Shown here in pieces: positions 38,991-54,992 of a stretch of 64,000 bases of DNA; the stretch's first letter is position 1, and the number at the start of each line of letters is the position of its first letter. Origin of the DNA: Escherichia phage EC_OE_11; sequence record OQ108497.1; one strand, written 5' to 3'. The notes under the pieces are model-generated. The model was not told the origin of the DNA, made no database searches, and saw nothing but the letters and a program-made list of their open reading frames with translations. Made by a program: the position numbers and the translations under genes.

Positions 38991-39009
38991 AAGTTTTAGT
39001 CTTGTGCTA

Positions 39010-39038: not shown

Positions 39039-39085
39039 AACTTTTATCGGGAATACTCCTAACTAATCAAAAGAGATTAAAGACT

Positions 39086-39451: not shown

Positions 39452-39457
39452 AAAGCA

Positions 39458-39517
39458 TTGACAGCACGAATAAAAAGCATATAATACTTATATCGAGAGC
39501 GGGAATAGTTCCCGCCT
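39458..39517 (+). promoter_or_regulatory. promoter + stem-loop cassette (variant AGCGGGaatagttCCCGCC)
   Basis: TTGACA-16nt-TATAAT then hairpin. Confidence 0.6.
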
Positions 39518-39539
39518 CACTGAAAAAGAGATTAACATC

Positions 39540-39779
39540 ATGGCTAAATCTAAAATGTACAACGGTCACAAAAATAAAACTCATTGGAATGTAAGCCTTT
39601 GGATTAATAATGATGAATCGTTATACTTATACGCTGTAGGTTTAATAAATGAGTGCGGCAATAAAGATAAAGCGGCGGATCTGATGTGCTACAGATTAAA
39701 ACAGGATGGAATCACTCATACACCTGATGGTTTCAAGTATAGTAAAACTGCAATCCGTGCCGCTATGGTAGGAATGTAA
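39540..39779 (+). CDS. hypothetical protein
   Basis: 79 aa. Confidence 0.55.
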   Translation: MAKSKMYNGHKNKTHWNVSLWINNDESLYLYAVGLINECGNKDKAADLMCYRLKQDGITHTPDGFKYSKTAIRAAMVGM

Positions 39780-39788
39780 TAAAAGCAG

Positions 39789-39848
39789 TTGACAACGTTT
39801 TTTAATCTGGTATAGTTTATCGCATAGGGCGGGAAATGGTTTCCCGCC
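39789..39848 (+). promoter_or_regulatory. promoter + stem-loop cassette (type A)
   Basis: TTGACA-16nt-TATAGT then GGGCGGGaaatggtttCCCGCC. Confidence 0.6.
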
Positions 39849-39870
39849 AAATCAAAGAAAGGTTATCATT

Positions 39871-40098
39871 ATGGCTATCGTTATTGTTCGCGTATCCGGC
39901 ACGGTTGGAATCTCCCAGGTAGTAGCAGTTATCACCGAGAAGAAAGGGGATGATCTTCACTCCTCATTGAATAGCTGGGCGGTCGCTAACTTTGGGCAAT
40001 GGTCGAGCGTTGAGTACATCGAATCCTACCAGGTGCCAACGATTAGCCTGACCGATCTCAACGTTGATCGTCTGTTATGCCTGGATCAATTAAACTAA
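39871..40098 (+). CDS. hypothetical protein
   Basis: 75 aa. Confidence 0.55.
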   Translation: MAIVIVRVSGTVGISQVVAVITEKKGDDLHSSLNSWAVANFGQWSSVEYIESYQVPTISLTDLNVDRLLCLDQLN

Positions 40099-40106
40099 AA
40101 ATAATA

Positions 40107-40164
40107 TTGACAAGACAACTAAAATTAGTAAAATGTAATTCATAGGGCGGCAATAGTGCCGCCC
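40107..40164 (+). promoter_or_regulatory. promoter + stem-loop cassette (type B)
   Basis: TTGACA-16nt-TAAAAT then GGGCGGC-aatagt-GCCGCCC. Confidence 0.6.
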
Positions 40165-40185
40165 CTAGTAAGAGAGATTATCAAA

Positions 40186-40401
40186 ATGGCTAATATCCGC
40201 ACCTTGTTAAAAAATGCAAAGCAAGTTTTATTTTCAGATGACGAGTATTTCAACAAAGACATTACAGGCGTGAAAAATTTAAAAGACGTGAAGGATGTTA
40301 TCGGTATCCGTGGATCTTTACGTAAAGGTGACATATACGGTAACAAGGTGCAATATAAACTGTCAAAAGATTATGATTTTACTTTGACAATTATTTCATA
40401 A
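40186..40401 (+). CDS. hypothetical protein (71 aa)
   Basis: Start moved to ATG 40186 (MANIRTLL). Confidence 0.5.
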   Translation: MANIRTLLKNAKQVLFSDDEYFNKDITGVKNLKDVKDVIGIRGSLRKGDIYGNKVQYKLSKDYDFTLTIIS

Positions 40402-40407
40402 AACTAC

Positions 40408-40470
40408 TTGTAAACCTGGTAAAATAAAGTAAACTATATTCATCAAGGCGGTGGAATAGCCCACCGCCTA
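40408..40470 (+). promoter_or_regulatory. promoter-like + stem-loop cassette (variant GGCGGTGGaatagCCCACCGCC)
   Basis: TTGTAA -35-like, long hairpin, then SD and ATG 40493. Confidence 0.45.
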
Positions 40471-40492
40471 ACAAAGAGAAGAGGAAAATATC

Positions 40493-40663
40493 ATGATCAC
40501 TTTCGCTACCCGTGAAGCCGCTCGCAACGTTGCACGTAAAGTTAACGCCGCAAACCTGGGCGCTACGCTTAAAGCCCCGGTGAAAGATGAATCAGGAAAA
40601 TGGATCTTTCCTGGTCTGCGTCACGCTGATAAGCTGGGAACATTAACGTTAAAAAATAAATAA
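40493..40663 (+). CDS. small hypothetical protein (56 aa), not in ORF track
   Basis: ATG 40493 with GAGGAAAA SD-like. Confidence 0.45.
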   Translation: MITFATREAARNVARKVNAANLGATLKAPVKDESGKWIFPGLRHADKLGTLTLKNK

Positions 40664-40670
40664 TATCCGC

Positions 40671-40729
40671 TTGACAGTAGCATCATTTATAAGTAAAGTA
40701 ACAACAACGGCGGGAAATGGTTTCCCGCC
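40671..40729 (+). promoter_or_regulatory. promoter + stem-loop cassette (type A)
   Basis: TTGACA, -10-like, GGCGGGaaatggtttCCCGCC. Confidence 0.55.
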
Positions 40730-40749
40730 ATCAATAAAGAGATAAGATT

Positions 40750-41109
40750 ATGAAATCAGTAAAAGCAATTAAAACTTACATTGTGTCGGCTATTTCTTTT
40801 GATGGTACTACAACCGAAAAAGAAAAAATCACCGAACTGATGCGCCGTTTTAACTCTGAATACTGGTATCAATCTAATCGTGATCGTTATAATAACAATA
40901 TGGTACAAGCTGTTAAAAGCTGGTTGCAAGGTTTACCGTCAGATATCAATATCGCTTTTAATTATAACGAGATCGATCAATTATTAATTGAATGGAAGTA
41001 CATAAAAGAAACAAGCAAAGAAACAACCGTTACCCGTGAGCGGGAAAATTATTGGTTATATATTGCAAGCATGATCGTAACTTTGGCAAAATATCATAAC
41101 GTAGCGTAA
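40750..41109 (+). CDS. hypothetical protein
   Basis: 119 aa. Confidence 0.55.
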   Translation: MKSVKAIKTYIVSAISFDGTTTEKEKITELMRRFNSEYWYQSNRDRYNNNMVQAVKSWLQGLPSDINIAFNYNEIDQLLIEWKYIKETSKETTVTRERENYWLYIASMIVTLAKYHNVA

Positions 41110-41123
41110 TCGAGAGGAAAAAC

Positions 41124-41261
41124 ATGAACGCATCACAGCAGATCGAAAAATTCAACCGCAACAAAGCGCGTAAAGATTGGAACGAAGAGATCACCAAGAA
41201 AGGCGACAAGCGGAACAAAACAAAGAGAGATCGCAGCAGCAAAAGATACTGGAACGAATAA
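41124..41261 (+). CDS. small basic protein (45 aa), not in ORF track
   Basis: ATG 41124 with GAGAGG SD; K/R-rich. Confidence 0.4.
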   Translation: MNASQQIEKFNRNKARKDWNEEITKKGDKRNKTKRDRSSKRYWNE

Positions 41262-41263
41262 CA

Positions 41264-41290
41264 AAAAAGGGCGCAATAAGCGCCCTTTTA
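41264..41290 (+). terminator. intrinsic terminator
   Basis: GGGCGC-aataa-GCGCCC + TTTT. Confidence 0.75.
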
Positions 41291-41379
41291 GCTTATATAG
41301 GGGCTTGTTAGTTATAGGCAATGGTAACGCCAGGATAAGCCTATAAACCACGTTAGACAGCTTTACAGGAGCTTTAAAA

Positions 41380-41562
41380 ATGAAATTAGACGAAATAAGC
41401 AAGGCACTAGCCCAGGGGCAAAGGTTATGCGCCCGATATCGTGATCAATATGGCTTTATAACTAGCGGCGTGATCCTGGGGATTGAAGACAATAAAATTT
41501 TTATTGACACGTGGAAAAACGTTGTATATAGTGACAATATAATCTCAATAAAACATATATGA
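41380..41562 (+). CDS. hypothetical protein
   Basis: 60 aa. Confidence 0.5.
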   Translation: MKLDEISKALAQGQRLCARYRDQYGFITSGVILGIEDNKIFIDTWKNVVYSDNIISIKHI

Positions 41563-41570
41563 GGCAAGAA

Positions 41571-41972
41571 ATGAAAAAATTATTGATCGCTGGTTTACTC
41601 TCTTTTGGTATGGTTGGAACATCTAGCGCGGCGATATCCTCCACAGTAGCAGAATTAAGCGCCGTTGATGCAATGGAAAACGTCATGATCATTAATAATG
41701 CGATCCCCGATGAAATCATGGAGGATTCACACATGATCGCTTATGGTGCTATTACACAACTGACGGCAAAAATAGATAAATCTATTGTTAATGGCTTAAA
41801 TGAAGATGTACCATGCGAAATTATTACCAGTGTGCTCACTACTCAAAATTTTACGCCGTGGTTAAAAAGTATTCAAAAAGTACACAGTACAGCCGCAGAT
41901 CGTAGCAATGAAAAACTAGTGTCAGCACTTGCAACGTATACCCTAGCAAAATGTACTGAAATAAAAGATTGA
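41571..41972 (+). CDS. secreted protein (signal peptide)
   Basis: MKKLLIAGLLSFGMVGTSSA signal; start at 41571 with GAGG SD (ORF-track start 41559 also possible). Confidence 0.5.
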   Translation: MKKLLIAGLLSFGMVGTSSAAISSTVAELSAVDAMENVMIINNAIPDEIMEDSHMIAYGAITQLTAKIDKSIVNGLNEDVPCEIITSVLTTQNFTPWLKSIQKVHSTAADRSNEKLVSALATYTLAKCTEIKD

Positions 41973-42019
41973 CAACATAGAAAGCACGTTATAAGATACA
42001 CACAACAAAGGAGAACTAC

Positions 42020-42322
42020 ATGAACGGCATAGCTAAAACGTTTTTTCTTTTTTCTGGTGTAAATGATCCATCAATAAAAGTCGATAGCGTAAAAGAAAAC
42101 AATACTATCACCGCTAAATTATTTCAAGATGAAACAAATAACGTGCTAATCATTAATCTTAAAGAAATAACAAAAGGTTATTATACTATTGCTTACCATG
42201 CGATCTATAATGCTGATACTAGTGAGGAAGTGCAAACAAGCAACAACGAAAGCGCGGCGCTACCTGGTGATCTGGTGCTGGGCGTTATCAGTTTAATTGT
42301 CAATGATTTTTTTAAGGAGTAA
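42020..42322 (+). CDS. hypothetical protein
   Basis: 100 aa. Confidence 0.5.
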   Translation: MNGIAKTFFLFSGVNDPSIKVDSVKENNTITAKLFQDETNNVLIINLKEITKGYYTIAYHAIYNADTSEEVQTSNNESAALPGDLVLGVISLIVNDFFKE

Positions 42323-42326
42323 AACC

Positions 42327-42422
42327 ATGCCCTATTTACATTTATTTTTCGGTATCTTATTGACAGGATCTTTTTTCTTCTGTATGCTTGTTTCTATTGT
42401 AAACCACGTTTTAAGACATTAA
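42327..42422 (+). CDS. tiny membrane peptide (31 aa), speculative
   Basis: AAGGAG SD 7 nt upstream of ATG 42327. Confidence 0.35.
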   Translation: MPYLHLFFGILLTGSFFFCMLVSIVNHVLRH

Positions 42423-42431
42423 GGAAACAGC

Positions 42432-42551
42432 ATGAAAATTATTCCCGTACAGTATAGCGTAATAAATCCAGCATATGAGGAAGGAAGGAAAACAAGCATG
42501 GCTTTATGTTGTATTGCTACTATAACCATGTTGTTATACATTGTGTTTTAA
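42432..42551 (+). CDS. small membrane peptide (39 aa), speculative
   Basis: ATG 42432; hydrophobic C-terminus. Confidence 0.25.
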   Translation: MKIIPVQYSVINPAYEEGRKTSMALCCIATITMLLYIVF

Positions 42552-42580
42552 TAGGTTTTATAGTTGTACGCTTTAAAGGC

Positions 42581-42608
42581 TTGACAATTTTTTGTTATGC
42601 TTTAAAAT
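42581..42608 (+). promoter_or_regulatory. sigma70-like promoter
   Basis: TTGACA-16nt-TAAAAT. Confidence 0.5.
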
Positions 42609-42651
42609 ATATCTTGAAAACGGCAAAGGCCGCAAACAAAAGGGTAAAATT

Positions 42652-42975
42652 ATGAAATCTGTGATCGGTGTTTATTTGGATAACTCTGATTTTTTCTATC
42701 ATCGCGCTCGTTTCCTTGATGCGATTGAAATGATAGAATCAGGCTTTAAAGAGTATCGCCTTGCACATGATGACCTGGAAGCATTACAGGACAATAGTGT
42801 TTTTACATTGCAAGCTAAAGCACTATGCAAAAGCCGGATCGACATTGCAAGCAAAAAGATAGAACGCGGCATGTCCTGGTTGCGCACCGCAGAAATCAAC
42901 ATGGGGCAATGGTACGGCGAAAACTTAGAAAATAAACACACTTTTGTAAATGTAGAAAATATTAAAGATTATTGA
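42652..42975 (+). CDS. hypothetical protein (107 aa)
   Basis: Start moved to ATG 42652 downstream of promoter. Confidence 0.5.
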   Translation: MKSVIGVYLDNSDFFYHRARFLDAIEMIESGFKEYRLAHDDLEALQDNSVFTLQAKALCKSRIDIASKKIERGMSWLRTAEINMGQWYGENLENKHTFVNVENIKDY

Positions 42976-43037
42976 TTGACAGCACACCTGATAAGTAATA
43001 TATTGTATCTCATAGAGCGGGGAAATGGTTTCCCCGC
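42976..43037 (+). promoter_or_regulatory. promoter + stem-loop cassette (type A variant)
   Basis: TTGACA, TAATAT-like -10, AGCGGGGaaatggtttCCCCGCC. Confidence 0.55.
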
Positions 43038-43057
43038 CTTAACAGAAGAGATAAGAT

Positions 43058-43342
43058 ATGAAGATCACAAAAGCACTTTCCAACTATGCAGCACGTCGCG
43101 GCTTATGTTTAACCGTTGAAAACCTGGGGAAAGAAGATTTTTTGTGCTTTTGGGAGCTTGAGAATGATAATGAGTGGATCTTCTCTTATTCTATCTGCGA
43201 AGATCAAAACGGTTGTTTATTAACCTGGCGCGGTAATATCTATTTACCGCAAGAAATCAAAGAGGAACTACCAGGCACGATCATGACTGAGAAACAGCTT
43301 AAGGAAGTGATCAATTTTGTAGGGCAAAACATTAAAAAATAA
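43058..43342 (+). CDS. hypothetical protein
   Basis: 94 aa. Confidence 0.55.
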   Translation: MKITKALSNYAARRGLCLTVENLGKEDFLCFWELENDNEWIFSYSICEDQNGCLLTWRGNIYLPQEIKEELPGTIMTEKQLKEVINFVGQNIKK

Positions 43343-43343
43343 T

Positions 43344-43404
43344 TTGACACTAGGCAAACAACGTAGTAAAGTTTATCACATAGGGCGGGAAATGGTTTCC
43401 CGCT
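43344..43404 (+). promoter_or_regulatory. promoter + stem-loop cassette (type A)
   Basis: TTGACA then GGGCGGGaaatggtttCCCGCT. Confidence 0.55.
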
Positions 43405-43426
43405 CACAGTAGAAGAGAAACAAATC

Positions 43427-43597
43427 ATGATCCCAACTATGTTTTATGTATCGCGCAAAGGTCACAATATTTTTTGGTCTGAAGATTTAAATGAAGCCAT
43501 GACGTTTGCCCGTGATCGTGTTGCTATTGGTGGCGTTAATATCACTGTAACCGATGAAAATGGCATTGAATACTATAACGGCGACGATGAAGAGTAA
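43427..43597 (+). CDS. small hypothetical protein (56 aa), not in ORF track
   Basis: ATG 43427 downstream of cassette. Confidence 0.45.
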   Translation: MIPTMFYVSRKGHNIFWSEDLNEAMTFARDRVAIGGVNITVTDENGIEYYNGDDEE

Positions 43598-43604
43598 TTA
43601 ATGA

Positions 43605-43630
43605 GGCGGGGGGAGTATTCCCCGCCGTCA
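43605..43630 (+). promoter_or_regulatory. orphan GC stem-loop without obvious promoter
   Basis: GGCGGGGGG-agtatt-CCCCGCC between coupled genes. Confidence 0.4.
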
Positions 43631-43645
43631 ATAAAGAGATAAATC

Positions 43646-43915
43646 ATGAAAATATCATTAGACGTTGCAATCAAGGCCATCGAATCCGGTTACATCCTGG
43701 TAAAAGATGATAAGGCTAAAACCGTGCACCACGTTAACAAGGAAACAGGCGAAAGCATGATCACATATAAAGCCGCCTACTTTCTCCAATCAGTAGCAGA
43801 TCCGCGCGTACAACGCCAGGTTACAGCGGCTATTGCTAAAAAATTATGTGCTTTACAGGGCACAAGTTTTAACGAGATCGCCCCGTGTTTTGACTGGTCG
43901 AGCTTGAAAAAATAG
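43646..43915 (+). CDS. hypothetical protein
   Basis: 89 aa. Confidence 0.55.
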   Translation: MKISLDVAIKAIESGYILVKDDKAKTVHHVNKETGESMITYKAAYFLQSVADPRVQRQVTAAIAKKLCALQGTSFNEIAPCFDWSSLKK

Positions 43916-43916
43916 T

Positions 43917-43972
43917 TTGACAACAATTATAAATCGGGTAGAATGTATTTCGTAGGGCGGCAATAGTGCCGC
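43917..43972 (+). promoter_or_regulatory. promoter + stem-loop cassette (type B)
   Basis: TTGACA-16nt-TAGAAT then GGGCGGCaatagtGCCGC. Confidence 0.6.
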
Positions 43973-43995
43973 TCACAACTAAAAGAGAAATCATC

Positions 43996-44190
43996 ATGGC
44001 GCTTAAAAAATTAACAAGCAATACTCGTTGGGATGAAATCGACGGGGAAGTATACATTTTCGCCCGTAAACCAGGTGATCAAAAATGGTCAAAGGCTTTT
44101 ACTTGCCACCCTGCAACAATAGATCTAATAAAAAGTAAAGGTTTACGTGAAGCAGTAGCAAGGAGCTTACTGATCCCTTATAAAAAATAG
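43996..44190 (+). CDS. hypothetical protein (64 aa)
   Basis: Start moved to ATG 43996. Confidence 0.5.
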   Translation: MALKKLTSNTRWDEIDGEVYIFARKPGDQKWSKAFTCHPATIDLIKSKGLREAVARSLLIPYKK

Positions 44191-44191
44191 T

Positions 44192-44250
44192 TTGACAATA
44201 CGCGGTTATCTGGTAAAGTGTACGACATAGGGCGGGGCAATAAGGCAACG
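44192..44250 (+). promoter_or_regulatory. promoter + imperfect stem-loop cassette
   Basis: TTGACA-16nt-TAAAGT then GGGCG...CGCCC. Confidence 0.5.
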
Positions 44251-44271
44251 CCCACTAATGAGGGTAAAATC

Positions 44272-44376
44272 ATGTTAGAGAAAATTTTCACGGTTGTAGT
44301 AGTGGGCCTGGCGTTATCGGTTGGAGTGATTGCAACTATGGCTAACATGATCCTATCTTCCCACGGTATTGGATAA
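44272..44376 (+). CDS. small membrane peptide (34 aa), not in ORF track
   Basis: ATG 44272; single TM helix. Confidence 0.4.
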   Translation: MLEKIFTVVVVGLALSVGVIATMANMILSSHGIG

Positions 44377-44386
44377 GGTGAATCAA

Positions 44387-44602
44387 ATGATCACGAATAA
44401 GACAGGTAAAACAGAATTTTTACGCGGCTTGCAAATAGGTAAACCTGAAATCTGGCATTGCACTAAAACACCACGTGACGAAATGAAAGATTTCACCGCT
44501 ACTTTACAACGTGTTAAAATATCTATCACACAGAAAAAAGCCTTGTTAGTAGTAGAAAACGAGATCCCGCAAACCATTATTATTGTTGAGCGTACAGCAT
44601 GA
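44387..44602 (+). CDS. hypothetical protein (71 aa)
   Basis: ATG 44387 with AAGGTG SD; ORF track used upstream TTG. Confidence 0.5.
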   Translation: MITNKTGKTEFLRGLQIGKPEIWHCTKTPRDEMKDFTATLQRVKISITQKKALLVVENEIPQTIIIVERTA

Positions 44603-44985
44603 AAACAGAAATCATTATTGAAATCATCAACGGTTATAAAGAAGCCTTTATTTTTGCTGAATCCGCCAGGGATCATGAAGGTAATTTTATTGATAACTTA
44701 GACGATTATGATTTTTCAGATCAAGCCCATCAGCGGATTATACGTGACGTGGCGGCGTTTTGTGATGCCAATGATGCCGCTATCTCTGAGGCAATGAGCG
44801 ACGGCGCAACAGCCAACCAGATCGGGAATGATTTACATTTTACCCGTAATAGTCACGGCGTAGGCTTTTGGGATCGCCCTGAAATATACACTACTAACAC
44901 CGCCAACCGCTTAACTAATGCAGCTAAATTGATGCCATCGGTGCATGCTTACATTGGTGAAGATAATTTGATTTATATTGAATAA
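44599..44985 (+). CDS. hypothetical protein
   Basis: 128 aa, ATGA coupling. Confidence 0.55.
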   Translation: MKTEIIIEIINGYKEAFIFAESARDHEGNFIDNLDDYDFSDQAHQRIIRDVAAFCDANDAAISEAMSDGATANQIGNDLHFTRNSHGVGFWDRPEIYTTNTANRLTNAAKLMPSVHAYIGEDNLIYIE

Positions 44986-44991
44986 AAAGTA

Positions 44992-45050
44992 TTGACACCG
45001 ATCCCCAATATGGTATGATTTACCACGTAGGCGGGAAATGGTTTCCCGCC
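44992..45050 (+). promoter_or_regulatory. promoter + stem-loop cassette (type A)
   Basis: TTGACA-16nt-TGGTATGAT (extended -10) then GGCGGGaaatggtttCCCGCC. Confidence 0.6.
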
Positions 45051-45073
45051 AGGTAATCAAAAAGGTAAATACT

Positions 45074-45463
45074 ATGCGCAACCTGGTTTCTGTTTCTAAC
45101 GTTGAAAAATTTCAATCCTTGCAGGGTATCGTTAACAACGTAGCGCCTTTTTTAGTCAATGGCTTGATTGCAAAGATGAAGAATAAACATCATGCGGCAT
45201 GGTCTGCTTACTGCTTTGATAATGATGAAAAAGCGGCTGAAATGATGTTAAATATGCTGTTAGATAGTGTAGAATCATCTTTACCGGAAAACATCGCAGA
45301 AGAGATCACCTATCGTTATAATATGGCGATCACTTACCAGGAAGTGGCGCAATTTAATATGATGGATGATGACGAACAACAGGATCAGGAAATTTTCTGG
45401 GAGTATGCAGATCGTCAATCAGCTTTTGATGAAAAATTAGCGATGTATTATAACGAATATTAA
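45074..45463 (+). CDS. hypothetical protein (129 aa)
   Basis: Start moved to ATG 45074. Confidence 0.5.
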   Translation: MRNLVSVSNVEKFQSLQGIVNNVAPFLVNGLIAKMKNKHHAAWSAYCFDNDEKAAEMMLNMLLDSVESSLPENIAEEITYRYNMAITYQEVAQFNMMDDDEQQDQEIFWEYADRQSAFDEKLAMYYNEY

Positions 45464-45472
45464 TACACGGTA

Positions 45473-45504
45473 AAAGAAAGGGGCGCACTAAGCGCCCTTT
45501 TTTG
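45473..45504 (+). terminator. intrinsic terminator
   Basis: GGGCGC-actaa-GCGCCC + TTTTTT. Confidence 0.8.
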
Positions 45505-45849
45505 TATTCTTTTTTTCACGATGGAAACAACACGTAAAGAATAGGCGTAAAGGTGGCGTAAAACCATCTAAAACCGACTGTAACCGCTTAAACAAGGTAG
45601 GAATGATTAATCACCTTACCAGGATGAAAAAGCTGTTAGAGAGCTATTCAGAGCGTTTAAAGCACATAGGAAATAATTTGCTTTTTATCTTGCCTTTTAT
45701 CCTGCTTTTGATTATTATTATGGAACGGGCGGCACCTGGGGACAGGGGAAGATAATCACCGGAAGATCCCGCTATATATTAATAGCTAATACCTATTAAA
45801 CAACAAAACATCAAAGGTATAAACTATCAAATCTTTACAATTCTACCTA

Positions 45850-45878
45850 TTGACACCGGATCACGCTTACACTATTAT
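45850..45878 (+). promoter_or_regulatory. sigma70-like promoter
   Basis: TTGACA-17nt-TATTAT. Confidence 0.55.
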
Positions 45879-45924
45879 TTATCACGTAGGGCAAATCATT
45901 TTAAACGGTAAACGAGGAATCACC

Positions 45925-46308
45925 ATGAGCAATATCATCAACCTGGCAGCGACTGTAAACGGTAAAGACTTTAACGGCGCTGTAGACCGTGATCCTATGT
46001 GGTGCTTGTCAGTGTTTAAAGGCGATCTGGTTGAAGTTAGAACAACCGAAGGTTATAGCGACGATTATAAATGCGAGATCCATTTACATAACTGGTACAC
46101 GGGGAAAACTTATGCGCTGAATCACGCGTTTATCGGGAAAATTGAATATCGCGAGATGATCGACGAAGAAACGGGGCAAGATTTTAGCGATTATGTTTAT
46201 ATCCGTTCAGAAACATTAGCCGAACGTTTGATCGAGAAAATGAAAGCAAAAAATAAAATTAATTTATCTCATTGGATTGATATAACAAACGATCCTGCTT
46301 ATCAGTAA
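45925..46308 (+). CDS. hypothetical protein (127 aa)
   Basis: Start moved to ATG 45925. Confidence 0.5.
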   Translation: MSNIINLAATVNGKDFNGAVDRDPMWCLSVFKGDLVEVRTTEGYSDDYKCEIHLHNWYTGKTYALNHAFIGKIEYREMIDEETGQDFSDYVYIRSETLAERLIEKMKAKNKINLSHWIDITNDPAYQ

Positions 46309-46332
46309 ATAACATTTCATACCAGGGCGCAC

Positions 46333-46360
46333 AAAGCGCCCTTTCTTTTTACCTAAATAA
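46333..46360 (+). terminator. intrinsic terminator
   Basis: GGGCGC-acaaa-GCGCCC + TTTCTTTT. Confidence 0.75.
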
Positions 46361-46554
46361 AGATGATAGCTTTTACCTATCAAAAACGTTCACCGAAAAA
46401 AGTGAATAGATCGCGGTATCGAGCTAATCAAGGAGCAGATGAACAACCATACCATGAAGATCATAAGGCGCTTACAACGTGTTTTAGACCGCTTATTTTT
46501 AATTTCTCAATGTAACTATCGGGCAAAAACAGCCTTTTTCTTGTCTTTCCTCTT

Positions 46555-46572
46555 AAATGATAATCATTCTTA
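46555..46572. promoter_or_regulatory. Fur-box-like motif AAATGATAATCATTCTTA
   Basis: Matches GATAATGATAATCATTATC-type consensus. Confidence 0.45.
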
Positions 46573-46610
46573 TTTATAGCTGATTATTTATGCAATAAAC
46601 TGCATAATGC

Positions 46611-46630
46611 AATAATGATAATCATTCTTA
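46611..46630. promoter_or_regulatory. Fur-box-like motif AATAATGATAATCATTCTTA
   Basis: Second copy about 55 bp downstream. Confidence 0.45.
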
Positions 46631-46924
46631 ACTTATGACCATCTAACCTATAAAATAATAAGTTATCTAACTAAATTAAAGCTAACTATTTCACCTTTAT
46701 TTATAACTTACTGTTACTATCTCATTGATAACCTTATATTAAACAACAATAACTAATATAAATCATTACTAAGCTAAATATAATCTATCTAACCTTTAAA
46801 ACTATAACTATAATCTATCGAATTGTTGCACAAAGTAACTATTAAATTGTTAGTAACATTACTAAATAATTCACATCCTATCTATTTATGATCTAATCTT
46901 TACCTTCCTATCTATTACCTAAGT

Positions 46925-46956
46925 AATCATTTCATACAGCAATCATTTCATACAAC
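46925..46956. repeat. tandem direct repeat AATCATTTCATACA(G/A)C x2
   Basis: Two adjacent 16-bp units in ORF-free AT-rich region. Confidence 0.6.
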
Positions 46957-47019
46957 AACTATAACAAGAAATATAATTAGCAAGCGTATCATTAGCAGCC
47001 TATGCCGGACACATAGGCG

Positions 47020-47165
47020 GCTAATAATAACGCAACTACACACCCCACATAATAACCATCACCGATAGTTATTATCTGTGCTTATGTAGCTTGCAACAAT
47101 TGCAAGCGCAACAATATACATGGTATATTGTATCCCTTACATTGTTGCGGTGCGTTATTATTAGC
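47020..47165. repeat. large dyad-symmetry element: 14-bp inverted repeats flanking about 120 bp with internal hairpins
   Basis: GCTAATAATAACGC at 47020-47033 vs exact reverse complement at 47152-47165; internal CGCAACAAT...ATTGTTGCG hairpin. Confidence 0.6.
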
Positions 47166-47511
47166 TAATGTTTGGAACATTGGCTATAATATAAGCTACA
47201 TATAATAAGCTATTCAATAATAAACATCGTGAATAATGACATTGAAATGAATAATGACACTGATGATCATAATGCGCCACCTTCCAGGGGGCGCTATGTG
47301 AACACAAAGAAATCTTTCTTGTCAAGAAAAATATCACCATTATTGCGCAAAATTATTTATATCTGAATAGATGATTTTTCATACTATTGCCCCTATACAC
47401 TACCTCATTTGTTGCAATGTATCCCCCTATTTGTTGAGCCTATTCTCTTAAAAGCGCAATAAATCAGAATTATCTTGATTTTTAGTGGATTTTATAGTAT
47501 AGAAAATATGC

Positions 47512-47529
47512 AAATGATAATCATTATCA
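47512..47529. promoter_or_regulatory. Fur-box-like motif AAATGATAATCATTATCA
   Basis: Near-consensus Fur-box-like palindrome. Confidence 0.45.
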
Positions 47530-47694
47530 GCTATCTTCCACGGGTGGCACTATTTCACGCCAGATCATTTCATTTGGCAAGGTGTATATAGATGTTTAGA
47601 AATGCCAAGCCATTGATTTACTTAGAATTTATCTGTTTTGTTGTGAGTAGTGCCTTTCTTGCTCAGAAAATAATCAAAAGTCTTATAAGTCATT

Positions 47695-47730
47695 GAATGA
47701 TAATGCAAATGATAATAATTCTCATTGATA
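47695..47730. promoter_or_regulatory. tandem Fur-box-like motifs
   Basis: GAATGATAATGCAAATGATAATAATTCTCATTGA. Confidence 0.45.
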
Positions 47731-47846
47731 TTTGAGGGGGACGGTCGGCAGAAATCGGGGGGCGCTGAAAATCGCGTTAAGCACCTCTCGCAAGCGAGCA
47801 GTATTTTGCGGCAAGTTATTGATATTATTGGCTTTACGCTTATGGA

Positions 47847-47954
47847 AAGGGGGTGTGTCGAAATAAATCGGGTATACCGGAAAATTTTTGTGGCATAGAT
47901 ATTTATTTGTCTATATTATGTACAAAGGGGTGTGTTAAAAATATTAGGTATATA
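47847..47954 (+). repeat. two copies of about 30-bp direct repeat (AAAGGGGTGTGT..AAATA..GGTATA), possible promoter elements
   Basis: 47847-47876 and 47924-47954, about 75 bp apart, upstream of first gene of 48-60 kb cluster. Confidence 0.5.
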
Positions 47955-48085
47955 TAGAATAATTGATAGGGAAATCCTATACTAATTCCTCTATTAATGA
48001 TGCTTCTAGGTTGCTGTTCTTGTAATAGATGAAAAGACGCTATATGATGTGTGGCATGAAACGTAAATTTATAAAGGAGTCTGAT

Positions 48086-48445
48086 ATGTGTGTTCCTCTT
48101 AGCAGTCCACTGCTGTTAGAATTTTACAAAGCATGGATGGAAGATCATTCCTCAATGCATCGTGAGAATGTTGGTTTGTGTAATTGCCTTATGGATTACC
48201 TGGCAACCACTATGTCAAAGAAAAAACCTACGGAAGAAGATATAGAATATTTCAAGATGGTTCGTAGCAAAACGCTGGAAGAGATGAAACTGCAATTCAC
48301 GTGTGCTGGGCTATGCTCCTTCCTACCCTTTAATTATGATCTTCTGTGTTATGAAGATGAAGGTAAGACACATTCTTGCCATACCAACCCAAAGAGATTG
48401 CAGTGGGTGAAAGATCGTATTGCCGATTCATGCAAGGGTGTGTAG
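48086..48445 (+). CDS. paralog family member A (conserved-Cys family)
   Basis: ATG 48086 with AAAGGAG SD; shared LLEFYKAW, GLC.CL, FTCAGL, LPFN.D, RLQWVKDRI. Confidence 0.55.
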   Translation: MCVPLSSPLLLEFYKAWMEDHSSMHRENVGLCNCLMDYLATTMSKKKPTEEDIEYFKMVRSKTLEEMKLQFTCAGLCSFLPFNYDLLCYEDEGKTHSCHTNPKRLQWVKDRIADSCKGV

Positions 48446-48446: not shown

Positions 48447-48602
48447 ATGTTGGAATTGATTGGGATAGTTTGGTTAATGATAAAAGCAGGTTTCGTCGGT
48501 TTCGGACTTCTTATAATTTTGTGTATGTTCCTTAGTGCAATACAGGCATTCTTTTATCTGCTAGGTAGAATACTTAAGTTGGGAGGTGATAATGAAAAGT
48601 AA
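48447..48602 (+). CDS. small membrane protein (51 aa)
   Basis: ATG 48447 right after upstream stop. Confidence 0.4.
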   Translation: MLELIGIVWLMIKAGFVGFGLLIILCMFLSAIQAFFYLLGRILKLGGDNEK

Positions 48603-49490: not shown

Positions 49491-49706
49491 ATGAAAAGCA
49501 TTAGGGTGTGTATCGAAAATAATTGTGGCTATCTGGGGTTGACACACGTTGCTTTCCCTCTTATATTGGATGCCGATATAGCTTACAGTGGAGTTGCTTA
49601 TGTGTCATTCAAGACAATGAGCCAAGTACCTGGCTGGAATTGGGAAGTGGTTGATGTTGTTGAAGGAGAAGACTATGTTTTCCTTCCACACGAATATACT
49701 GTTTAA
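49491..49706 (+). CDS. hypothetical protein (71 aa)
   Basis: ATG 49491 with GGAG SD. Confidence 0.5.
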   Translation: MKSIRVCIENNCGYLGLTHVAFPLILDADIAYSGVAYVSFKTMSQVPGWNWEVVDVVEGEDYVFLPHEYTV

Positions 49707-49721
49707 AGAGAGGAAAAGAAG

Positions 49722-49904
49722 ATGGATAAACAAACTACTGTGTACTTAGTAACAAAGAATACCCTAGACTGGAACCAATGCAGCACTGTCCCTTACAAGA
49801 TCTGTGCAACATTAGAACTAGCACAACGTGCAGAAGCAGAAGTGGATGCCATGCAAATGCAACACAGCTATGGTGAAATCATTCCTTTTACTATTGAACA
49901 ATAA
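49722..49904 (+). CDS. hypothetical protein
   Basis: 60 aa. Confidence 0.5.
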   Translation: MDKQTTVYLVTKNTLDWNQCSTVPYKICATLELAQRAEAEVDAMQMQHSYGEIIPFTIEQ

Positions 49905-49915
49905 GGAGTTGTGTA

Positions 49916-50368
49916 ATGTTTGAAATTGGTAAAGTGTATCGTTTTAAGAACGAATCTTATATCCGTAAGTTTGCTAATGTGTCTGAGTGCAATAGCAGGA
50001 TTGCTTCTTTCTTAGGTGATTCCTGTTTTCGTGTATTAGATGTGGATGCCTGGTATGGTGTCACTTCTTTGCAATCCTTAGCAGGAGAGCAAGAAATTAT
50101 CACTCAAAATGAAGGAGACTTTGTTCTGTGTTACACATTGCTTGCAGAAAGTGAGTTTGAATACTTTGTAGAAGTAGTAGAGGAAACACCAAAAAGTAAA
50201 CATGAAGAGAAATACCTGCTTGTAGTGGATGGAGTTCCAATCGTGGAAACCATCTACCGTGAGGAAGTTGAAAAAGAGGCAAAACGTTACAAGCTGGATC
50301 GTACACAGAGTGTAGTTGAAGTCTATTCTCTTATTGGTGTTGCAGATGTTCATGTGAACATTGTATAA
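49916..50368 (+). CDS. hypothetical protein
   Basis: 150 aa, AAGGAG SD. Confidence 0.55.
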   Translation: MFEIGKVYRFKNESYIRKFANVSECNSRIASFLGDSCFRVLDVDAWYGVTSLQSLAGEQEIITQNEGDFVLCYTLLAESEFEYFVEVVEETPKSKHEEKYLLVVDGVPIVETIYREEVEKEAKRYKLDRTQSVVEVYSLIGVADVHVNIV

Positions 50369-50369
50369 T

Positions 50370-50582
50370 ATGTGTAATGATAGATACATTCTTCGTGTAT
50401 CTGATAAGTCTCCTATGTTTGACTGGCGGGGCTGGTGGCTACTAGCTCCGATGCTAGGTCTGACTGACGTGGAAAAGGAGGCTTATGTGTATACAAAAGA
50501 AGAGATAGAAGATAGCCTTTATTTGACAGATAACATTAAGAATGGTATCTTTGAGTGTAAATTGAAAGGAGAGGAAGAATGA
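50370..50582 (+). CDS. hypothetical protein (start uncertain)
   Basis: First ATG at 50370; weak SD. Confidence 0.35.
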   Translation: MCNDRYILRVSDKSPMFDWRGWWLLAPMLGLTDVEKEAYVYTKEEIEDSLYLTDNIKNGIFECKLKGEEE

Positions 50583-50878
50583 CTGTTACAGAAAAACTGC
50601 GTTGTATTGCAAAGCAAAGCGGGGAAGGTTTGTGGTTTCCTATTGATGAAGTTATTCAGGACTGTTATGATCAGGCTAAGACTGGTAAATACTCCAAAGC
50701 ATTTAAACCATCTGTTTTCGGTCTGGATGACTATCCGACAAATGAACAAGCAAGGAAACGCCAAGTTGATTTGATTGATCTTGCTATGGAAGCACTACGG
50801 GAGCGTGGACTTAGTAAGGTGTATGCTTTAAACACCAAAGAGGGTTTTGTAGATTCCGTGATCGTAGACTGGCATTAA
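50579..50878 (+). CDS. hypothetical protein
   Basis: 99 aa, AAAGGAGAGG SD. Confidence 0.55.
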   Translation: MTVTEKLRCIAKQSGEGLWFPIDEVIQDCYDQAKTGKYSKAFKPSVFGLDDYPTNEQARKRQVDLIDLAMEALRERGLSKVYALNTKEGFVDSVIVDWH

Positions 50879-50887
50879 GGAGAGATC

Positions 50888-51127
50888 ATGCAAGACAAGA
50901 ACCTAGCTGTAGGTGATACTGTTATTTACACACCGATGAAGCCCAATGGTTTTCCTATGCTCGGTACTGTTGTAGATATTACAGACCGTTTTGTCACCAT
51001 CTCTACAGGAGATATGCAGGTTGTACGTGATCGCAAGAATATCACTCGCTTTACGGACACTAAAACAGCATATGAGTCGAGAGATAAATTGGCTGAAGAG
51101 ATTGCCAAGTGGTATCCTGTACACTAA
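50888..51127 (+). CDS. hypothetical protein
   Basis: 79 aa, AAGGAG SD. Confidence 0.55.
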   Translation: MQDKNLAVGDTVIYTPMKPNGFPMLGTVVDITDRFVTISTGDMQVVRDRKNITRFTDTKTAYESRDKLAEEIAKWYPVH

Positions 51128-51141
51128 AAGGAGTGTGTAAC

Positions 51142-51483
51142 ATGAAAAGCAGCCCCTATTTGCTACAATTTTATGAGTGGTGGTTAGAACAAGAAGATAC
51201 AAACTTTAGCAAAAAGCACTATGGTCTTTGCACGTGTCTTGTAGACTTCTTATACAATATTGCTTGGATAAAAGATGTTGAGAATGTATCAAAACTCCAG
51301 TCCTCTGTACGAGAGGAAATGAAGGAACAGTTTAAGAAAGCGGGTTTGAACCATTTACACCCATTTAATACAGATTTCTCACATTACTTTACGGAAACAG
51401 AGTTAGGCATTGCACACCTTAACAAAAAACGTGTACAATGGGTGATTGATCGTATTCGTGATATGGAGGAATATAATGGTTAA
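51142..51483 (+). CDS. paralog family member C
   Basis: ATG 51142 with AAAGGAG SD; LLQFYEWW, GLC.CL, FKKAGL, HPFN.D, RVQWVIDRI. Confidence 0.55.
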   Translation: MKSSPYLLQFYEWWLEQEDTNFSKKHYGLCTCLVDFLYNIAWIKDVENVSKLQSSVREEMKEQFKKAGLNHLHPFNTDFSHYFTETELGIAHLNKKRVQWVIDRIRDMEEYNG

Positions 51484-51694
51484 GTTTAAAACTTTCTGTG
51501 CAATCTCTGTTTGTCTTGTTCTTGCATACGTGTTATTCTCTGGTATCATTCGTTTAGGTGATCATATGGCAAGAGAAGCTCGTGAAAGTGAAGCTAAAAA
51601 AGAACAGTGTATTGTGTTCAAGCATCAAAGAGATGCTGAAAAGTTTCTCGCACTTGATTGCAATCGTTATGTATCTTATCAAATGTATAAGTAA
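51476..51694 (+). CDS. small N-terminally membrane-anchored protein (72 aa)
   Basis: ATG 51476 with GGAGG SD; paralog of 56188..56412. Confidence 0.5.
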   Translation: MVKFKTFCAISVCLVLAYVLFSGIIRLGDHMAREARESEAKKEQCIVFKHQRDAEKFLALDCNRYVSYQMYK

Positions 51695-51703
51695 GGAGGA
51701 TTT

Positions 51704-51928
51704 ATGGTAAAACGTCTGGAATGGGATGCGTGTACTGCTCACGCTTGTCACTGCGATATTGTTGAAGATCCTAATGGGGAGATGGTGTATTACGAGGATT
51801 ACGAAGCATTGCATAATGCTGTGATCGCTTTACTGGATGATATTAGCTCACGCTATCCAGGACAACAGTTTACGTGTCCACATATTCAACTGTTAGCCAA
51901 ACTTACGGAGTATCCAAGTGTTCCATAA
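51704..51928 (+). CDS. hypothetical protein (Cys/His-rich N-terminus)
   Basis: 74 aa, AAGGAGG SD. Confidence 0.55.
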   Translation: MVKRLEWDACTAHACHCDIVEDPNGEMVYYEDYEALHNAVIALLDDISSRYPGQQFTCPHIQLLAKLTEYPSVP

Positions 51929-51929
51929 T

Positions 51930-52097
51930 ATGGGTGTCCCTGAACAACTCCTCTTTATTGTAGGACTAGTAGGCTTATTGGCGGCTGGAGCTAAAGCCGC
52001 TTCTCACACGCGTCACATAATGTTAAGATTTCTATTCCTGCTCCCTTCTATCCTCGTACTACTAGTCATACTGATCGATAACATTTTGCACAACTAA
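51930..52097 (+). CDS. small membrane protein (55 aa), speculative
   Basis: ATG 51930; hydrophobic; no clear SD. Confidence 0.25.
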   Translation: MGVPEQLLFIVGLVGLLAAGAKAASHTRHIMLRFLFLLPSILVLLVILIDNILHN

Positions 52098-52106
52098 GGA
52101 GAAGTC

Positions 52107-52691
52107 ATGAGTAAAATTATACCAAGCAGTTATGAATTATTGCAGTTTTATGTCTATTATATAGACTGGGTTACTAGATCGAATGTTAAAGACAATGCGA
52201 TGTTTAGTAAAAACATCTGTTTAACAGAAAGTATCTTCCGTTACTGGCACACAGGCAGAAAGTGTACACACAGTGAAGCTATGCGCATTGTAGGTGAATA
52301 CCTGGAGCAATTGCAAAAAGCAGAACTTCCTGTCCTTCACCCATTCAATGAATCTAAAGAAGAATTAGAACAAGAGTGTAGGGAAGGTAAGTGTCATTTG
52401 AATGAAAAACGTATTGAATGGGTAAGGCAACGTTTAGCCGATGCAGGAAAGCCTCCTAGTGACTCTGACTATACGTGGTACGATGTAGAGGGTTTAGTTC
52501 AAGGTTTTGAGGCTTGTGCTATAAATAATACCAACTTTGCTAAAGTTTTATGCGAGGTTTATGATTTGGCAGATAAAATCCGAAATCAAGGATGGAAACA
52601 AGAGCATAAAGAATCATATGAACGCCTTGACAAGATTTTCAAACAGATCTATTCTAACCACAAAGAGATGTTCCAAATGGAGGATGTGTAA
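52107..52691 (+). CDS. paralog family member D (longer C-terminal extension)
   Basis: LLQFYVYY, FSKNICL, QKAELPVLHPFN, RIEWVRQRL; 194 aa. Confidence 0.5.
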   Translation: MSKIIPSSYELLQFYVYYIDWVTRSNVKDNAMFSKNICLTESIFRYWHTGRKCTHSEAMRIVGEYLEQLQKAELPVLHPFNESKEELEQECREGKCHLNEKRIEWVRQRLADAGKPPSDSDYTWYDVEGLVQGFEACAINNTNFAKVLCEVYDLADKIRNQGWKQEHKESYERLDKIFKQIYSNHKEMFQMEDV

Positions 52692-53377
52692 TGAAAGAGA
52701 TTATGTTTGAAGGGCATCGTTACGAAGTTCCAGATAATGCAAATTTCATGGCTCGTGATATCACTGGAGATGTGTTCTGGTTTGAAGATGAACCTGTGTT
52801 TTCTTCGAACAAACACTGGTTTTCACAACAATCTTCTTCGGAAAATATGACTTTTGGCTACGTAGAGCCTAAAGTGCGCTGCAAAGCAGCTTCTTCTTTG
52901 GTAAAAATTTCCCAAGATGATCAAGAAAATACTCAAGATGTTGTTAGTGCACTACTGAAGTACATTGCCGAACTTGAGAATAAAATTAAAGAAGCAGAAA
53001 CTAAAGTGAAAGCACGATCAGCAATCATTGAAGCTATGTCTGAACGTATTTTAGAACTAGAAGATTTGTGTGGAGAGGCTTATCAAGTGGTTGGTGCACT
53101 GGCTTGTGAAGCAGAAATGTTTGAAACTTCAGAACAAGTTTCACATATGTTAGATAATTTGAGTGAATGTAAAATGATTCATGATGATGTATTGCCATTT
53201 TGTTGCAATGTTAACAAAACAGAGCAAACAGAAGATTCAGAAACAGTTTATGTTCCGCTGATGTGTATTCCAGATCATCTAAAAGGTGTATTCTCTTGTA
53301 AATGGTCATTGTTGAGCGTTACTAATTGTGGTGAAAATTATTCTGCTAACATTGAATTGCTAAAACACGTTAAATAA
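52691..53377 (+). CDS. hypothetical protein (central coiled coil, Cys-rich C-terminus)
   Basis: 228 aa, GGAGG SD. Confidence 0.55.
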   Translation: MKEIMFEGHRYEVPDNANFMARDITGDVFWFEDEPVFSSNKHWFSQQSSSENMTFGYVEPKVRCKAASSLVKISQDDQENTQDVVSALLKYIAELENKIKEAETKVKARSAIIEAMSERILELEDLCGEAYQVVGALACEAEMFETSEQVSHMLDNLSECKMIHDDVLPFCCNVNKTEQTEDSETVYVPLMCIPDHLKGVFSCKWSLLSVTNCGENYSANIELLKHVK

Positions 53378-53387
53378 GGAGAGTAAT

Positions 53388-53792
53388 ATGTGGTCTGTTA
53401 AAATCAAATATAATGCGCAGTATTATGGTGGGAAGCCTTACGAAGTTGTTATTTGTGACTGTATCTCTAAAGAAGTTGCACAGCTTTGTGGCGCTGGTGT
53501 TAGTGAAGCTATGAACAAAATGCATAACTCCACTGTACGTTACCTGGATCGGGATATTTCAGAAGATGTAAATGACTATGATTACGAGGTTATTTACAGT
53601 GAAGGTAAGAAACTCTCTATTGAAGATGCACTTAAAGCACTACCTGCTCTCTGCAATCCGACACCAGAAGCAGTTAAAGAGATTTTACCAGAATCCAACC
53701 CCGATGAATATGCCTCTATGGTTGCTTCAGATATGTGGAATCTCTGTCGAGAAACTATGATTAAAAATCTTGTGGAAATGGCACATGAGTAA
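53388..53792 (+). CDS. hypothetical protein
   Basis: 134 aa, AAGGAG SD. Confidence 0.55.
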   Translation: MWSVKIKYNAQYYGGKPYEVVICDCISKEVAQLCGAGVSEAMNKMHNSTVRYLDRDISEDVNDYDYEVIYSEGKKLSIEDALKALPALCNPTPEAVKEILPESNPDEYASMVASDMWNLCRETMIKNLVEMAHE

Positions 53793-54003
53793 AACGCACT
53801 TTATACATCCGTTTGATCCAAAGAACAAGGCGGTTATACACCGCCGTTGGACTGAAACGCGCATTACAAAATGTCCTGTGCCAGCAGCAGAGGAATATAA
53901 CAAAACATATAAAGCAGAATTCGTGGAGTACACCTTTGTGAATAACAAAGGGAAAGAGGTTTATGTTCCAGAATACTGTCTTTGGATAAAATGGGAGGAA
54001 TAA
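53785..54003 (+). CDS. hypothetical protein (72 aa)
   Basis: ATG 53785. Confidence 0.45.
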   Translation: MSKTHFIHPFDPKNKAVIHRRWTETRITKCPVPAAEEYNKTYKAEFVEYTFVNNKGKEVYVPEYCLWIKWEE

Positions 54004-54170
54004 TGCAAACATTTTTTATCGACAAGTTCAATAAAAATATGAACACGTGGATGGCAACATTCACTATGCAATTTGCGTCGTTTAAAGAAGCTCAAGAATG
54101 GTGCGATCAGCACAAGGATTTTGATTTTTACTATCAAATTAATACAAATCTCTCTCCAGAGGAGAAATAA
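54003..54170 (+). CDS. hypothetical protein (55 aa)
   Basis: ATG 54003 with GGGAGG SD, TAATG overlap. Confidence 0.45.
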   Translation: MQTFFIDKFNKNMNTWMATFTMQFASFKEAQEWCDQHKDFDFYYQINTNLSPEEK

Positions 54171-54171
54171 T

Positions 54172-54516
54172 ATGTTGGCTGATATTGAAATCCTTATGTA
54201 CCGACAAGGTATGATCAAAATGTGGCTGGACTCTTTTAGCAACATATACAGCACAGTGCGATCAGCAGAGGAGCGTAAAACGCTTATTTTATCTGCTATT
54301 GTTGATAAACAACGTTTCTTCAAAGAAGTTTTGCAAACAGGCTTCTCTGATGCAGGAGTAGAAATTGCAACTCTAAGTCTTGGGGTGCTGTCTTACTTGG
54401 AGTCCGTTGTTTTATATGTCTTCTCTTTAGAAGAAGACTTGCAATTTGAAGCATTAAAACTTATCTTAGATGCTGCAATTGACATAGAACAAAATCGAAT
54501 TGATTCTTTTGAATAA
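54172..54516 (+). CDS. hypothetical protein (114 aa)
   Basis: ATG 54172 with GAGGAG SD. Confidence 0.5.
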   Translation: MLADIEILMYRQGMIKMWLDSFSNIYSTVRSAEERKTLILSAIVDKQRFFKEVLQTGFSDAGVEIATLSLGVLSYLESVVLYVFSLEEDLQFEALKLILDAAIDIEQNRIDSFE

Positions 54517-54532
54517 AAATAAGGAGAAAACT

Positions 54533-54991: not shown

Positions 54992-54992
54992 T

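Follow-up and report, generated by a model that had tools for sequence, protein, structure and literature searches.

In bacteria, Fur boxes are a textbook feature of iron genes; their known occurrences in phages are mostly upstream of the cargo genes of temperate phages (stx1, sit). In the literature that we searched, phage Fur boxes appeared only upstream of such cargo genes (sit, stx) and in the entries for nohA and nohB; no paper described such boxes for phi92-, rV5- or phAPEC8-like phages, nor Fur sites at phage ends. For the nohA site of prophage Qin (22.3 bits), a gel shift with Fur in vitro and selection in vivo are on record, and a Fur site at nohB is credited to a Fur-titration-assay study (PMC2189734). 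Overlapping sites shifted by 6 bp are a known architecture of Fur clusters (PMC2189734). Here we describe Fur-box-like sites in Escherichia phage EC_OE_11 (sequence record OQ108497.1), of which a stretch of 64,000 nucleotides, called the window below, was analysed. By homology the window is from a virulent phi92-like myophage (Justusliebigvirus, Stephanstirmvirinae) with E. coli as host, an assignment drawn from the annotated close matches examined. Four such sites lie in a gap between genes, and two of these are inside the direct terminal repeat (DTR) of the phage chromosome.

The exact 15-mer AATGATAATCATTMT occurs at 46556-46570, 46614-46628 and 47513-47527, and a copy with one mismatch is found at 47708-47722, within the composite GAATGATAATGCAAATGATAATAATTCTCATTGATA (47693-47729). 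A sequence-only reading of this DNA had listed a recurring core at four positions, and its coordinates proved right to within 1-3 nt. As 19-bp boxes, which are given without a strand, box 1 is TTAAATGATAATCATTCTT (46553-46571; exact core, matrix score 21.7), box 2 is AATAATGATAATCATTCTT (46611-46629; exact core, score 24.0, 3 mismatches to the 19-mer consensus) and box 3 is GCAAATGATAATCATTATC (47510-47528; score 26.8), the best in the window with 2 mismatches to the E. coli 19-mer consensus. Box 4 is the overlapping composite at 47693-47729; its two matches, offset by 6 bp, are at 47705 (score 24.2) and 47711 (14.8). The first cluster of the window, which we call the internal hub, consists of five tandem Fur boxes at 35808-35919 (no strand given; spacing 17-29 bp; 11.9 kb from the right end) with scores of 18.5-25.0.

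These sites are strongly enriched. Over the whole window there were 46 matches at ≤3 mismatches, against 11.6 ± 4.0 (maximum 22) in dinucleotide shuffles, so that the comparison with shuffled sequence which the sequence-only reading had proposed as a check came out against chance. For the 13-mer core there were 3 exact copies, with none expected, and 9 copies at ≤1 mismatch, compared with an expected 0.4. Under local Markov models (46309-48086, 32% GC), the 4 sites at ≤1 mismatch compare with 0.02-0.04 expected, and 0 of 1000 simulations had a count as high. The excess was thus ~100-fold over expectation, local composition included. Matrix matches of ≥14 bits in the window (12 of 12) were all within the two non-coding hubs. 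In the complete genome of Salmonella phage UAB_1, 11 of the 12 core sites were in three non-coding hubs; the twelfth, at 124026, was inside an annotated UvrD/REP helicase gene (122569-125343).

The four sites have 2-5 mismatches to the 19-bp Fur consensus GATAATGATAATCATTATC, which is TGATAATnATTATCA in its 7-1-7 form, and their core is that of the Fur consensus. For reference, the fepB-entC operator has 3 mismatches and so does the verified nohA site (by inspection), and the identical site of lambda has 3 as well. A symmetric matrix was made from nine phage boxes alone and scanned over 600-640 kb of E. coli K-12 and 12 kb of the Qin prophage. In the 40 kb of K-12, its top four matches were in the fepB-entC and fepD-entS intergenic regions, and 6 of its 10 top matches were in three Fur-controlled bidirectional promoters of the ent-fep cluster. 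In the 12 kb of Qin, the top match was the site ~230 bp upstream of nohA (locus L068, 6589-6613). Overlapping pairs at an offset of 6 bp were seen at 35808/35814, 35831/35837 and 47705/47711; the periodic matrix itself favours such pairs. A tblastn search for a Fur homologue encoded by the phage returned nothing significant.

The boxes are conservation islands across three genera. The gap was aligned with its counterparts in phAPEC8, ZCKP1, phiWec188, KP2025 and SF1-1, about one third being alignable by BLAST (72-82% identity). Mean identity was 0.96 in the core of box 1, 0.87 in that of box 2, 0.88 in that of box 3 and 0.87 over box 4, compared with 0.69 for the whole gap and 0.51-0.67 for its variable stretches. 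Box 1 was the best conserved, with 85% invariant columns across genera. Box 2 was degenerate in the phAPEC8 group. Box 3, which has an invariant TTGATT ahead of it at 47474-47479, was retained in 5 of the 6 aligned phages and lost in KP2025, and box 4 was present in all 6 (66% invariant columns). Boxes thus persist in these five relatives and also in Av-05 (Vequintavirinae), where similar boxes follow a homologous terminator. Homologues of the internal hub were found in phAPEC8 (at least 4 boxes) and UAB_1. Because of the reciprocal matrix test, the conservation islands across genera and the strong enrichment, we regard the phage sequences as real, selected elements that match the Fur box; probably they are genuine binding sites of host Fur. 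The Fur-box-like appearance noted in the sequence-only reading was therefore borne out as a match to the enterobacterial Fur box.

The gap that contains the four boxes (46309-48028/48086) has no open reading frame (ORF) longer than 59 amino acids. The 343-bp left and right DTRs annotated in UAB_1 align over 343 of 343 positions, at 97.4% identity, to 47437-47779, and by this homology the physical genome ends of EC_OE_11 are located there (no strand given). For phage BME3, the termini were set with PhageTerm and the DTR is 342 bp (PMC12210895); the BME3 record begins at window position 47778, on the minus strand. From the UAB_1 alignment and the BME3 termini, the gap therefore reads as right-end non-coding DNA (46330-47436), followed by the DTR (47437-47779) and a left-end leader (47780-48086), three parts which the circular assembly has brought together. 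Judged by these relatives, the ORF-free gap is the junction of the physical genome ends, and the DTR is single-copy in the window because the assembly was circularly joined. The DTR boundaries, TTGTTG^AGCC (47432-47440) and GCGTTA^AGCA (47774-47784), have TTR^AGC in common; this is conserved across genera and is likely to be the terminase cut-site motif.

Relative to these boundaries, box 3 is 73-91 bp from the left one (DTR positions 74-92) and box 4 is 50-86 bp from the right one (DTR positions 257-293), while boxes 1 and 2 are 0.81-0.88 kb before the DTR. As boxes 3 and 4 are inside the DTR, both ends of the virion DNA should carry both clusters. The sequence-only reading had spoken of a 1.7-kb ORF-free region, which agrees with the short ORFs, but it missed that the region is the genome-end junction; with two of the four sites inside the 343-bp DTR, the possible purpose of the sites changes.

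The boxes stand apart from the main promoters. With a sigma-70 matrix, more than 25 near-consensus promoters (TTGACA-16/17-TATAAT, 13-16 bits) were detected on the + strand at 36700-46000 and 49500-58100. They precede small early genes, none is in a Fur hub, and all are without a Fur box. Promoter-like sites beside the boxes scored 4-11 bits, and the best candidate varied between genera. Around box 2 (46587-46656, + strand) there are weak sigma-70-like candidates, TTTATG-18-AATAAT with an extended TG (7.5) and TTAACT-17-TAAAAT (11.1), whose position is not conserved in the other genera; box 2 overlaps the weak -10-like element and abuts the -35-like TTAACT. In the alignment columns of box 2, AATAAT with an extended TG in this phage corresponds to TATAAT in the phAPEC8 group and to GATAGT with TG in KP2025. 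A generic scan of the region did not detect an excess of promoter-like sites (16 vs 13.6 ± 3.5). Weak Fur-controlled promoters are nevertheless possible because of the shared -10-like columns at box 2 and the invariant TTGATT before box 3. Of the "real regulatory motif" of the sequence-only reading, we can thus keep a real, selected element, but not a transcriptional role, as the boxes avoid the strong early promoters and the adjoining sites are weak.

Fur boxes of this kind were also found in other phages. In IMG/VR, two Fur cores within 4-34 bp of each other were present in 38 loci belonging to 25 sequence clusters, and 37 of the 38 could not be aligned to EC_OE_11; two scrambled palindromes of equal composition, used as a control, gave 9 and 2 loci. 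Many of these loci are arrays in which a unit is repeated in tandem, from 3 to at least 12 times; the repeat units differ while the core is constant (for example L024 10765-11325, L030 14038-14134, L042 14696-14798, L033 9409-9480 and L050 276-430). Several arrays are at contig ends or upstream of terminase genes, and in 8 unrelated viral contig clusters an array is followed, at a distance of 0.3-2 kb, by terminase or portal genes. In Serratia phage BF (NC_041917, ~930-1100; locus L066), a TTGACA-17-TATAAT promoter is followed by a hairpin with a Fur box in its loop. This promoter and long inverted repeat are ~1 kb from the start of the jumbo-phage record and are resembled by an IMG/VR locus (L019, 1180-1340).

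In lambda (NC_001416, 48.5 kb), the best Fur match is at 48447-48471 (21.0 bits, with 15.8 at +6), and the next non-overlapping match scores 14.2. This top site has the sequence of the Qin nohA site, is separated from the right cohesive end by 31-55 bp and adjoins GGGTCCT, which we take to be cosQ. The best match in HK97 is weak (11.2) and is 60-78 bp from the right end. A control scan of T7 detected no Fur-like site, with no match above 10.9; Fur boxes are therefore not universal among virulent coliphages.

What would these boxes do? The likeliest effect, which we put forward tentatively and at somewhat less than an even chance, is that Fur is titrated on replicating phage DNA to the benefit of the phage. 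Fe2+-Fur dimers would occupy 11 clusters (15 overlapping 19-mers) per virion DNA, and 100-200 genome copies would present 1,100-3,000 high-affinity sites, soaking up the Fur pool. With the Fur pool put at roughly 5,000-10,000 monomers and the phage genome copy number at 100-200, the 1,100-3,000 sites would be comparable to the pool and would exceed what a one-box multicopy plasmid supplies in the Fur titration assay. Derepression of the iron-starvation regulon of the host (RyhB, uptake systems) would then follow in mid-infection, and this would favour the iron-dependent ribonucleotide reductases of the phage, which encodes NrdAB and NrdDG. Any weak promoters beside the boxes would be Fur-repressed at low phage copy number and could serve as copy-number- or iron-gated switches. 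Sequestration seems the most defensible consequence because the sites avoid strong promoters, are multiple and form arrays elsewhere; all 12 matches of ≥14 bits are in non-coding hubs, several strong sites being grouped off promoters as in a decoy array. Several points weigh against it. For a decoy, a precise and conserved placement <100 bp from both DTR boundaries is not needed, and neither are the flanking motifs TAAGTNATTGAAT and TGATATTTG, which are invariant. The single cluster of lambda has too few sites for titration, yet it is also at a genome end. The arrays of other phages upstream of terminase genes fit an end-related role, or merely tolerated non-coding DNA. T7 has no sites, so virulent coliphages have no general need of them. 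In addition, the Fur pool size and the genome copy number used here are rough general estimates.

The boxes might instead be classical operators, at which Fe2+-Fur represses the sigma-70 promoters that they overlap. One start would be near 46620 and would give a non-coding transcript crossing the junction, with box 2 on its -10/+1 and box 1 upstream; other starts would be inside the DTR, with boxes 3 and 4 just downstream of them. In that case, transcription at the termini would depend on iron or, after titration of Fur, on the number of genome copies. This would agree with the overlap with promoters that 83% of the Fur clusters in E. coli show (PMC2189734), with the -10-like hexamer in common alignment columns at box 2, with the invariant TTGATT upstream of box 3, and with the Fur box that follows a consensus promoter near the record start of jumbo phage BF. 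However, the box-side candidates score 4-11 bits compared with 13-16 for the evident early promoters, the genera do not agree in their best candidate, promoter-like sites are not in excess, and the tandem arrays of other phages are not promoter arrays. Operators are not our first choice because the box-side sigma-70 candidates are weak and non-conserved, and we consider them rather improbable as the main role of the boxes. Another explanation, which we consider unlikely, is that Fur within 100 bp of the cut sites serves a transaction of the DNA ends, as IHF does at lambda cos: the terminase might be marked or slowed by it ahead of the terminal cut, or it might catch the DNA that is first to enter the cell. 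The distances of boxes 3 and 4 from the DTR boundaries, with their conserved flanks, are what such a role would predict. The best match of lambda genome-wide is close to its right end, and the identical Qin sequence binds Fur in vitro and in vivo (PMC2189734). The best match of HK97, though weak, is placed likewise, and arrays precede terminase or portal genes in the 8 unrelated contig clusters. Such a role does not suit the internal hub (11.9 kb from the end) or boxes 1 and 2 (at 0.8 kb); box 3 is missing from KP2025, and T7, another phage with a terminal repeat, has no site. Moreover, the concentration of non-coding space at genome ends could alone explain the placement, and we know of no role of Fur in packaging or injection.

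Two further explanations take the palindromes not to be Fur sites at all. They might be sites of a phage-encoded protein, be it a repressor, a small terminase or a replication initiator, whose likeness to Fur boxes is superficial. The occurrence of palindromic repeats in non-coding hubs, close to termini and beside ~70-bp direct repeats, is typical of such sites, and most of the neighbouring genes have no known function. Against this, the match to Fur is too exact, as the Fur operators of E. coli are the top matches of the matrix made from the phage boxes, and the same core is present, with differing flanks, in the arrays of 25 unrelated viral contig clusters, and also in lambda. Recurrence of the core in unrelated clusters and in lambda therefore suggests one host protein that they have in common, not phage proteins particular to each lineage, and we regard a phage protein as very unlikely. 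Chance similarity in AT-rich non-coding DNA could appeal to the 32% GC of the region; it is refuted by the local-composition simulations, none of which reaches the count, and by conservation of the sites across genera where the flanks diverge, and we give it practically no weight.

Several other features were located around the boxes. In the internal hub, three ~70-bp direct repeats at 35560-35800 (ATTATTTAAAGTTTTT ... TTTTGAAAATGAAAAGTTCAA) are immediately left of the boxes, and an AT-rich sequence with ATTTAAAGTTT is in the corresponding position in phAPEC8. These repeats look like iterons and may mark an origin. Next to this hub, 33647-35371 encodes a 390-amino-acid protein with three CapR homology domains and a T5orf172 domain, followed by a NADAR-domain protein (ADP-ribose processing). 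In a Pfam search, the genes flanking the hubs had NADAR, CapR/T5orf172 and gp30.8-like domains; a DNA-binding regulator was not among the domains found in them.

The ORF-free gap (32% GC at 46309-48086) is flanked by a T4 gp30.8-like gene (45850-46308, a phi92 gp248 homologue) and by the first small early gene, which starts at 48087. An intrinsic terminator at 46324-46350 (+ strand; stem-loop and T run) closes the right-arm early operon after the gp30.8-like gene. It has a mean identity of 0.96 across 6 phages of 3 genera and is annotated as a terminator in PATM and phAPEC8; the generic promoter and terminator scan detected no other terminator in the region. Behind boxes 1 and 2, the right-end non-coding DNA contains a G-poor (~5% G) A/C/T-rich tract at 46630-46960 (+ strand; composition in 50-nt bins) with short direct repeats D4-D8, including ATCTAACC... 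and two copies of AATCATTTCATACA. Sequence identity of this tract between genera is 0.51; nonetheless its CA-rich, G-poor composition is kept, the phAPEC8 group included.

A conserved multi-branch structured element is found at 46998-47165 (no strand given), ~270 bp left of the DTR. Its outer stem is formed by GCTAATAATAACGCA and TGCGTTATTATTAGC and encloses three inner hairpins. Among the 49 consensus pairs, 12 have compensatory changes (8 sequences, three genera). Its z-scores are -5.7 (+ strand) and -9.0 (- strand), and the G-U evidence on the strand is conflicting. The element has no match in Rfam. It could be a non-coding RNA, or a DNA cruciform used in concatemer processing before the DTR. 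Across the region, no Rfam family was found at gathering thresholds or in permissive mode, and no tRNA was found. A RyhB-like or anti-RyhB RNA under Fur control was also sought, and no complementarity of ≥10 nt was present in the region.

On the other side of the DTR, the left-end leader (47780-48086, + strand) extends to the first early gene, with its ATG at 48087 (annotated in relatives). It has two AAGGGGTGTGT repeats (D9) and weak promoter candidates with scores of 7.7-10.6. The repeats, as AAGGGGTGTGT(C/T)(G/A)AAA, are at 47847-47863 and 47924-47940, each ~13 nt ahead of GGTATA, and the second copy is conserved across genera. As a candidate for a genome-wide promoter motif, GGGGTGTG was rejected, since it occurs only locally.

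The region 46300-48100 matched 79 phage records, the top one being Escherichia phage 92CQ (98% identity); 47 of the 79 cover ≥80% of the query, mostly at 90-96% identity. Four records, MG065639, MG065645, MG065656 and MG065689, are labelled 'Campylobacter phage' with C. jejuni as host and are ~94% identical to the coliphage across the region, and their host label looks doubtful. Some relatives, such as 92CQ and J-01, have up to 10-11 'hypothetical proteins' annotated in the gap, for example at 46363-46579, 47161-47340 (- strand) and 47725-47898. Because the alignment across relatives shows indels and poor conservation there, these entries look like over-annotation.

The setting of the boxes, in the DTR and the non-coding hubs of a virulent phage, is new, and it has parallels in lambda and in many uncultured phages. 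A strictly lytic family keeps ~11 consensus host-Fur sites off its main promoters across subfamily-level divergence. If Fur binds them, infection must sense or perturb host iron regulation, which bears on phage performance in iron-poor gut, urine and serum and on phage therapy, and the long-known, unexplained Fur sites of nohA and nohB would gain a function. Fur sites at or beside phage DNA ends could conceivably form a widespread unrecognised class of elements that recruits or sequesters the host iron sensor, although we hold this to be doubtful; the examples are the DTRs of phi92-like phages, the lambda site beside GGGTCCT and the arrays upstream of terminase genes in uncultured phages. Such sites would provide a host factor for DNA-end transactions, or a decoy that reprograms host iron homeostasis.

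Compared with the Fur operators of E. coli (fepB-entC, fepD-entS), the phage boxes have the same 19-bp, 7-1-7 palindrome and the same 6-bp-shifted overlaps (PMC2189734), and they match the consensus comparably or better. They differ in being on a virulent phage chromosome, off iron genes and recognisable strong promoters, in 11 clusters in three non-coding hubs, the DTR included. The nohA and nohB sites of the cryptic lambdoid prophages Qin and DLP12 and the site at the right end of lambda are likewise strong Fur sites tens of bp from a phage DNA end. These phages are temperate, with cohesive ends and a single cluster, whereas EC_OE_11 is a virulent myophage with a DTR and several clusters. 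The nohA and nohB sites have been read as the promoter for a terminase-subunit homologue, and our literature search found no paper that ties them to genome ends.

With regard to titration, many high-affinity copies lower the free regulator in the case of Fur titration assay plasmids and of chromosomal datA (DnaA). Titration by the phage genome is what we infer here, and the target of datA is an initiator protein, whereas Fur is a metal sensor. Sites of host nutrient regulators are present in virulent phages as the NtcA and PhoB boxes of cyanophages; those are on specific gene promoters, whereas EC_OE_11 carries its boxes in non-coding hubs and the DTR. Finally, lambda cos has the IHF sites I1 and I2, and DnaA boxes have been reported in the T5 terminal repeat. 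Like the Fur boxes of EC_OE_11, these are sites for an abundant host DNA-binding protein beside phage DNA ends, and it is the protein that differs.

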